This document shows positions 24,815 to 25,067 of a stretch of 64,000 nt of DNA, one piece after another. The DNA is taken from contig OZ024741.1 of the NCBI GenBank assembly GCA_964016885.1, forward strand, positions 264,678,001 through 264,742,000, written 5' to 3'. Each line of letters begins with the position of its first letter. The first letter of the stretch is position 1. The position numbers and the translations under genes are program-made. The stretch is from Eledone cirrhosa. Lineage: Eukaryota. The notes under the pieces are model-generated. The model had not been told where the DNA came from and did not search any database. It was given only the letters and a program-made list of their open reading frames with translations.

Positions 24815-25067
24815 CATGGAACTCTTTTAACCATCTTTTGATCTTATATATTATTTATACTCTAGTCCTACAAACTGTAGAGTGCTTCTTATCCGATATC
24901 TGCATTGCTTTATTGTGCTACAATAAAACTCACCTCCTACGTTAACTTGCTCCTTAACGGTTCAGCGCTAACTTTCTTATTGGATACCTTTCGATGGTCC
25001 TTCACTTTTTCTTCCACAACATGGATTATCTGCATTGCTTTATTGTACTACAATAAAACTCACCTCC

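Follow-up and report, generated by a model that had tools for sequence, protein, structure and literature searches.

Five families of Penelope-like elements (PLEs) in the genome of Eledone cirrhosa (F2 to F6) share a hairpin with a near-invariant, bulged motif core of 13 nt, and this hairpin marks where their insertions end. It stands downstream of the hammerhead ribozyme (HP1) and, in every family except F3, again further 3' in canonical form (HP2). Ends lie roughly 5 nt 5' of a hairpin, at an offset that stays about the same though the spacing between the hairpins ranges from 55 to 106 nt. Since insertions end at HP1 or at HP2, the one-sided tail of these elements is the interval between the two hairpins. 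Our analysis suggests that the hairpins are probably binding sites of the RT-endonuclease, which would fix its internal RT starts at the TA-rich patch just upstream. PLEs are the sister group of telomerase, and their inverted arms with a one-sided tail have been puzzling since the elements were first described. In the accessible part of their text, Craig et al. (2021, PMC8557442) name PLE template choice and the question of the tail as the next task, and the corresponding part of the only study done in vitro (Frangieh et al. 2024, PMC11167929) gives two internal starts and no signal that sets them.

The host is an animal with a microsatellite-rich genome of 3.0 Gb, in which each family has hundreds to thousands of first-look candidate copies. 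A type I hammerhead core lies upstream of the hairpin in F3 to F6. In F2 (2555-2650, + strand, of the window, which is the whole 64,000-nt stretch analysed here) most copies seen have U3/A8 in place of C3/G8, a compensated variant core, and hammerheads with such a U3/A8 core are active. Copies that extend past the tail run into ORFs with RLRW and SDKT motifs. The intact F4 ORF (709 aa, L291:1486-3615) has the RT motif YRDD and a C-terminal VY..YIG, as in an RT followed by a GIY-YIG endonuclease; a Pfam search at E 0.001 assigned no family to it, and the domain names rest on motifs compared with PMC8557442. The diagnostics of the Hydra clade, as given in the accessible text of that paper, are RWK, DKT, a CxCX5C linker, CxxC/CxH, no CCHH, and (TA)n. 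The RWK-type motif near the N terminus reads RLRW(R/H/I) in F2, F4, F5 and F6, and F3 leads into a similar N terminus, although all F3 copies seen are damaged (L428 has a stop at the W position of this motif). The change from DKG to DKT appears as SDKT in F2, F4 and F5 and is damaged in the F6 and F3 copies seen. The F4 ORF has the CxCX5C linker, with CxxC and CxH around conserved E and N and with CCHH absent, and C-terminal fragments resembling its own were found in loci from the F2 and F6 searches. Also, a canonical hammerhead (variant in F2) and insertion at (TA)n are both present, as in the Hydra clade. The F4 unit measures ~3.25 kb (a 2130-nt ORF, a ~870-nt 3' region and a ~260-nt leader region), where the paper's size for the clade is 'generally' under 3 kb. 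By these motifs, the five families are assigned to the Hydra-clade PLEs, F3 having been checked less fully. A preliminary description of this DNA had called the families dissimilar. They are not unrelated: their ORFs are of one PLE clade, and the hairpin motif is thus inherited. They are relatives whose untranslated sequence has diverged everywhere but in the ribozyme core and the hairpin. A search of IMG/VR returned no relative.

In its refined form, the motif consists of RCUC, an inner stem of at least two pairs, a loop, two bulged bases opening with U, GAGY, and RCY. The six hairpin strings first listed in the preliminary description were all recovered at their coordinates and on their strands, and the common fold proposed for them (a 4-bp outer stem, a 2-nt 3' bulge, an inner stem and a loop) is real. 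To this our analysis adds the invariant U that opens the bulge, the RCY triplet on the 3' side, a second hairpin at the tail's distal end, and at least five additional hairpins in the window. The distance of ~25-55 nt past the hammerhead cut stands roughly, the measured range being 25-59 nt, with F5 slightly over at 59 nt. In 800 kb of position-picked DNA the motif was matched 60 times, against 0-9 times for 12 permuted outer stems (the control with nine matches represents other repeats), 0-3 times for other first bases of the bulge and 1-3 times for other 3' triplets; a second position-picked sample, of 370 kb, gave 17 matches against 0-2 for permuted stems. The density is ~66 hairpins per Mb, or ~2 x 10^5 genome-wide by extrapolation from both samples. 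The 267 matches from all loci form 28 clusters, a few singletons among which are probably chance matches. A chance origin of the motif, or five convergent hairpins, is ruled out by the control counts together with ORFs that are all of one clade. In the window, no Rfam covariance model matched at gathering score. Five loci that carry paired hairpins gave 11 sub-threshold miRNA matches, all in L291 and none over the hairpins.

The F6 read-through copy in the window lies on the + strand, with its type I hammerhead, from core to predicted cut site, at 24752-24806. Its HP1 (24859-24886, +) has the 4-bp outer stem, the 2-nt 3' bulge from U, the inner stem, loop and RCY, and is conserved in family copies; here it has a point change at the start of the inner stem, where the other copies shown mostly have C-G as the first pair. 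HP2 (24949-24969, +) follows 90 nt after HP1, with one 3'-arm base changed here and intact in L012 and L023. The tail runs from the proximal end point (~HP1 -4 to -7) to the distal end point (~HP2 -6 to -8), at 24855-24942 (+), and the first three codons of the Hydra ORF are at 25021-25029 (+), starting as in the ORFs of L012 and L023. The distal half of the tail recurs at 25027-25070 (+, matching 24897-24940), where it ends at the distal end point against (TA)n, and this repetition right after the first ORF codons is likely a template jump ~45 nt past the distal start. Another F6 copy (26027-26217, +) is short-ended and stops before HP1, its body lying toward lower coordinates.

The F5 head-to-head insertion (23770-24207) has its tail-bearing arm on the - strand (hammerhead core 23962), with HP1 at 23832-23854 (-), and its short arm on the + strand (core 24107), where it ends 7 nt before the HP1 position. 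HP1 of F2 is present at 2673-2699 (+; insertion ~1956-2745, short arm on -), at 35719-35745 (+; insertion 35586-35790) and, in a third copy absent from the first list, at 8373-8399 (-). That of F3 is found at 4009-4030 (-; insertion ~3968-4148) and in an older F3-like copy at 49980-50002 (-), and that of F4, with a long loop, at 9747-9795 (-; insertion ~9720-9926). The hairpin also occurs in a further family (cluster c16) at 34558-34587 (-), ~100 nt before that family's end, and in another at 8507-8536 (+) and again at 8741-8770 (-), the tails facing each other across (TA)n. Tail-to-tail pairs across (TA)n, the reverse of the usual head-to-head form, are seen at 8491-8786 and 23339-23468; these could be target duplications of an earlier end or independent insertions.

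Copies of F2, F4, F5, F6 and two bystander families that read through show HP2 67-106 nt 3' of HP1 and before the ATG, starting a few bases past the tail's distal end. The exception is F3: of the 11 copies shown, most have just a short stem at the distal site, lacking both the inner helix and the bulge; this reduced stem explains why an exact pattern for a canonical second F3 hairpin had no match in the genome. F3 still has two sharp ends (19 and 18 of 43).

Ends were mapped on natural read-through copies of 242-336 nt, for seven families, in a position-picked set of 117 x 10 kb (1.17 Mb). Out of 154 ends flanked by (TA)n, 72 are at HP1 and 73 at HP2 (145/154), and nine are elsewhere, an end being counted at a hairpin within -12..+1 of it; this interval was set after the first end data and so is not blind, and the two 14-nt windows make up ~1/10 of each reference. 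Ends without (TA)n in the same DNA number 30, with 11 at a hairpin and 19 away from either. When bystander and window copies are added, 204/212 ends from six families are at hairpins, in a sample that overlaps the position-picked set. The commonest intervals are -7..-4 at HP1 and -6..-3 at HP2, so that the earlier observation of short arms stopping within ~15 nt before the hairpin holds and becomes tighter (mostly -9 to -2). The motif is kept in the families and the end points are not random, these being the two points on which the idea had been exposed to failure beforehand. Microhomology at the ends spans 0-7 nt, mostly 3, and is absent from 28/145 ends. Many other TA runs in the same references go unused as ends, which rules out microhomology alone as what sets them. 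In six more families short ends were found beside the hairpin (c4, 4/8; c7, 3/8; c8, 2/5; c10, 5/8; c20, 7/11; c26, 1/2), and the same survey found none beside it in c6, c9, c12, c13, c15 and c16. Reference c25, which has a microsatellite inside, and c11 and c24, which have foreign flanks, were left out of the end counts.

The two kinds of end are combined in a strict manner. Among 46 position-picked head-to-head pairs, 38 are long+short, none is long+long or short+short, and eight have an unclassified end (p 4e-12 against free choice); with bystanders, 60 pairs comprise 51 long+short, none of the same kind and nine unclassified. The tail is thus on one of the two inverted pLTR arms in 38/38 and 51/51 classifiable unselected pairs. 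Tail-selected loci (48 pairs) comprise 33 long+short, two long+long and 13 unclassified. The rule of one of each favours a single coordinated complex, with one or two RNAs being read. Comparing the two bodies within each of 85 long+short pairs shows 39 symmetric pairs, 13 whose short-ended arm has the longer body (for example 325 against 214 nt in L143, 253 against 59 in L202 and 189 against 69 in L036), six whose tailed arm has it, and 27 left unassigned. Both arms usually cross the hammerhead cut site, which indicates that the template RNA is uncut. Many F6 inversions (e.g. L006, L007, L009, L022) are centred on one 6-nt palindrome, some with short central tandem repeats, and short F2-F4 insertions turn within the hammerhead stems.

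The inner stem covaries, with Watson-Crick pairs in 89/93, 58/86 and 42/58 cases against shuffle maxima of 63, 37 and 27, in shuffles that ignore relatedness and with the arm chosen that had the best run. The outer pair among the genome's family representatives is A-U in 15, G-C in seven and G-U in one. At inner pairs 1-3 in loci from other taxa (described below), G-U occurs 11 times and A-C three times, which points to the sense strand and not to first-strand cDNA. The loop varies from 6 to ~70 nt, and a variable loop with a covarying inner stem excludes a site in duplex DNA. The near-invariant outer stem, the bulged U and the 3' RCU suggest a sequence-specific protein contact. Predicted pairing exceeds 0.7 for most of the foreign hairpins and is weak for HP1 in some families (0.15 in F5, 0.34 in F4, 0.47 in F6), and the leader overall is not unusually stable (z of 0.02 against shuffles for the F4 leader).

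The motif is also present outside Eledone. F4 was aligned with 54/120 listed homologues, leading to 77 loci in metagenomes and 19 in prokaryote assemblies, the latter probably host DNA. These 19 loci with Hydra PLE ORFs (L408-L426) lie in bacterial assemblies, several of them of symbionts, and are probably animal host contamination. In foreign frames (n=49), RW[KR] is found in 39/49, DK[TS] in 45/49, CxCX5C in 43/49, CxxC in 46/49 and CxH in 46/49. The 88 foreign loci with flanking sequence (61 kb) contain the motif 119 times, in 62/88 loci; permuted stems gave 0-2 matches, changed bulge or 3' bases 0-4, and the reverse strand five. By strict match, the 50 loci with a leader of at least 150 nt have two hairpins in 26 cases, one in 13 and none in 11, and several of the 11 hairpin-less leaders have by-eye variants with compensatory outer pairs. 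Where there are two hairpins, they are 55-83 nt apart. The foreign ORFs form 35 clusters at 70% identity, 27 of them with a hairpin, at a median pairwise identity of 48%. For 34 foreign loci with two junction copies, 15 copies stop at a contig end, five read through and 14 are informative; 10 of these ends are at -6..0 of a hairpin and four elsewhere. In 38/50 foreign hairpins, position -6 is the first base of a TA or AT dinucleotide, within a TA-rich patch at ~-8 to -4. The first inner pair is C-G in 23/25 HP2 and U-A in 14/25 HP1, so that HP1 and HP2 differ slightly. Six consensi from File S7 of PMC8557442 were read by eye. The coral Hydra-2_Amil has a clear motif 43 nt after the cut; in the sea cucumber, Hydra-2_Ajap has one motif and Hydra-1_Ajap two, its consensus beginning 2 nt before the first. 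The copepod Hydra-1_Crog has variants only, and by eye no clear motif was found in Hydra-1_Amil (which ends 48 nt after the cut) or Hydra-1_Obim. A 13-nt motif that is present twice, in elements with ~48%-identical ORFs and in coral and sea-cucumber consensi, makes point-mutation experiments possible. The hairpin rule also gives an exact guide for annotating the ends of Hydra elements, and the hairpin is a candidate RNA handle for comparing the PLE RT with RNA binding by telomerase.

In the mechanism that we favour, which is modelled on the in vitro behaviour of the Poseidon element PAc described below, the element would be transcribed through the tandem junction with its hammerhead uncleaved, and the RT-endonuclease, probably a dimer by analogy, would load onto both hairpins and cut both strands of the (TA)n target. 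Each target 3' end would pair over 0-7 (mostly 3) nt with the TA patch (~-8 to -4) and prime cDNA. The cDNA from the HP2 start would contain HP1 and the tail, that from the HP1 start would be without them, and the two would be joined head to head where a local palindrome occurs, in many cases within the hammerhead stems. The earlier suggestion of an undescribed cis-element for PLE RT recognition agrees with all the data and is the best reading of them, RT binding itself being putative. A narrower version, which we advance as possible rather than probable, is a two-handed TPRT in which one RT-endonuclease dimer grips both hairpins on one uncleaved RNA, opens the two strands of the (TA)n site and copies that RNA twice, starting once at each hairpin. 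If true, a single step would give rise to the head-to-head repeat together with its one-sided tail and the two integration junctions, and the twin-hairpin cassette of 60-100 nt would be a portable loading signal for a compact (~700 aa) retro-integrase.

Genomic ends alone fit an RT start and a nuclease cut equally, and the main rival accordingly places the hairpins at the endonuclease: a longer cDNA or second strand would be made first, and cleavage at the TA patch, 5 nt upstream of each hairpin (read in RNA or ssDNA), would then resolve the intermediate. All end statistics fit this equally well, the ends that lack microhomology (28/145) are in keeping with it, and the patch at -8..-4 resembles the endonuclease target; moreover, in the accessible texts, Craig et al. 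ascribe tails to 'EN-mediated resolution' (PMC8557442), and the Drosophila Penelope endonuclease, as recounted by Frangieh et al. (PMC11167929), needed the tail to cut plasmid DNA. We nevertheless regard trimming as unlikely. In the only active PLE system, the RT starts coincide with the tail ends (PMC11167929, accessible text), the loop of 6 to ~70 nt and the covarying inner stem exclude a duplex-DNA site, and the wobble pairs favour the sense strand over first-strand cDNA.

Much less probable is an origin of both arms from one molecule, either a cDNA from the distal site that folds back and is stopped by HP1 on its second pass, or an antisense transcript that primes itself (Arkhipova 2013). 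Either would likewise leave every insertion with exactly one long end and one short end, 39/58 resolved pairs are near-symmetric palindromes, and antisense self-priming is, in the accessible text of PMC3846280, the published account of head-to-head palindromes. However, the short-ended arm has the longer body in 13/58 resolved pairs (a further 27/85 being left unassigned), which neither self-copying nor a stop signal at HP1 on one folded-back cDNA can give and which weakens this reading; also, the two ends share motif, offset and TA patch, which points to one reaction occurring twice. The same 13/58 pairs, together with 73/145 ends copied through HP1, speak against the other half of the earlier suggestion, a template boundary in the telomerase sense. 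Least probable of all is that the hairpins bind protein to secure cis preference or to control translation of the ORF just downstream, and that their match with the ends is a coincidence, nearby TA patches or another cue setting the ends: HP2 lies 37-72 nt before the ATG in the 26 foreign loci with two hairpins, where a translational operator could sit, and F3 keeps its sharp distal end despite its reduced stem, but the end offset stays at ~-5 over hairpin spacings of 55 to 106 nt, and many of the other TA runs do not serve as ends.

RT-binding hairpins of the kind proposed here have partial parallels in other systems. In non-LTR elements, 3' stem-loops (R2 3' UTR, L2/SINE) are small RNA structures that recruit the element's own RT and position TPRT; they are single, lie at the RNA 3' end upstream of the start, and are copied, whereas the Hydra hairpins come as a pair inside the RNA, each flanking its proposed start on the side that is not copied. 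The template boundary element of telomerase is a helix 5' of an internal template that stops synthesis. It is alike in being a helix beside an internal template that is read by a related RT, and it differs in that the Hydra hairpins follow the copied region on its 3' side, with synthesis passing through HP1 in roughly half of the events (73/145). The Poseidon element PAc of Anolis (Frangieh et al. 2024, PMC11167929, accessible text) starts RT at two internal sites that are the tail ends, with both target strands extended, the RNA uncleaved and dimerisation predicted. It therefore resembles the elements described here in having two internal starts that bound the tail, downstream of an uncleaved hammerhead. 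PAc belongs to another clade, and its starts, described as having no homology to the target, lie in one AC-rich stem-loop inside the ORF; that text reports no motif that is repeated or conserved, whereas the Hydra elements here have two motif copies in the 5' leader, with mostly 3 nt of TA microhomology. Within the Hydra clade itself, as far as the accessible text of PMC8557442 goes, the likeness extends to ORF motifs, pLTR hammerhead, (TA)n targeting, an inverted truncated arm and a one-sided tail, and the difference is that tails are 55-106 nt here and 30-40 bp there. That text gives no RNA element beyond the hammerhead ('hairpin' and 'stem-loop' have 0 occurrences each), though its own consensi hold the motif. 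No description of paired hairpins was found in the literature searched, including the accessible texts of PMC8557442, PMC4209133, PMC3846280 and bioRxiv 2026.07.22.740005, a scope that excludes subscription papers, Repbase reports, 21 Repbase Hydra sequences and figures. The elements are thus members of a known clade, with a paired RNA signal that was not found in Rfam or in the literature searched.

Several other repeats in the window lack the hairpin. An ORF-bearing, high-copy PLE at 26885-28536 (-) (also L151-L180), with DKS, a CX4CxxC linker and its own hammerhead, is by motif a non-Hydra PLE, Neptune/Nematis-like. It has two ends and the hairpin in just 2/90 matches; the presence in the same genome of a two-ended non-Hydra family without the hairpin indicates that the hairpin is not needed for PLE tails generally. 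Its ends are ~55-60 nt apart, each followed by TATCG in read-through copies, which is perhaps a different repeated start cue. A hammerhead family at 11175 (+) has the hairpin in 0/62 matches, with ends that cluster near one position, and another at 22987 (+) is likewise without it. In addition, a very abundant SINE-like repeat of ~200 nt forms tandem clusters at 12853-13195, 21356-21770, 44724-45405 and 54674-57371, and a degenerate interstitial telomere-like array occupies 22045-22423. A duplication of 1.7 kb, with an 18-bp minisatellite and a run of N, lies at 37523-41507, and a tandem duplication of 820 bp at 30073-31737.
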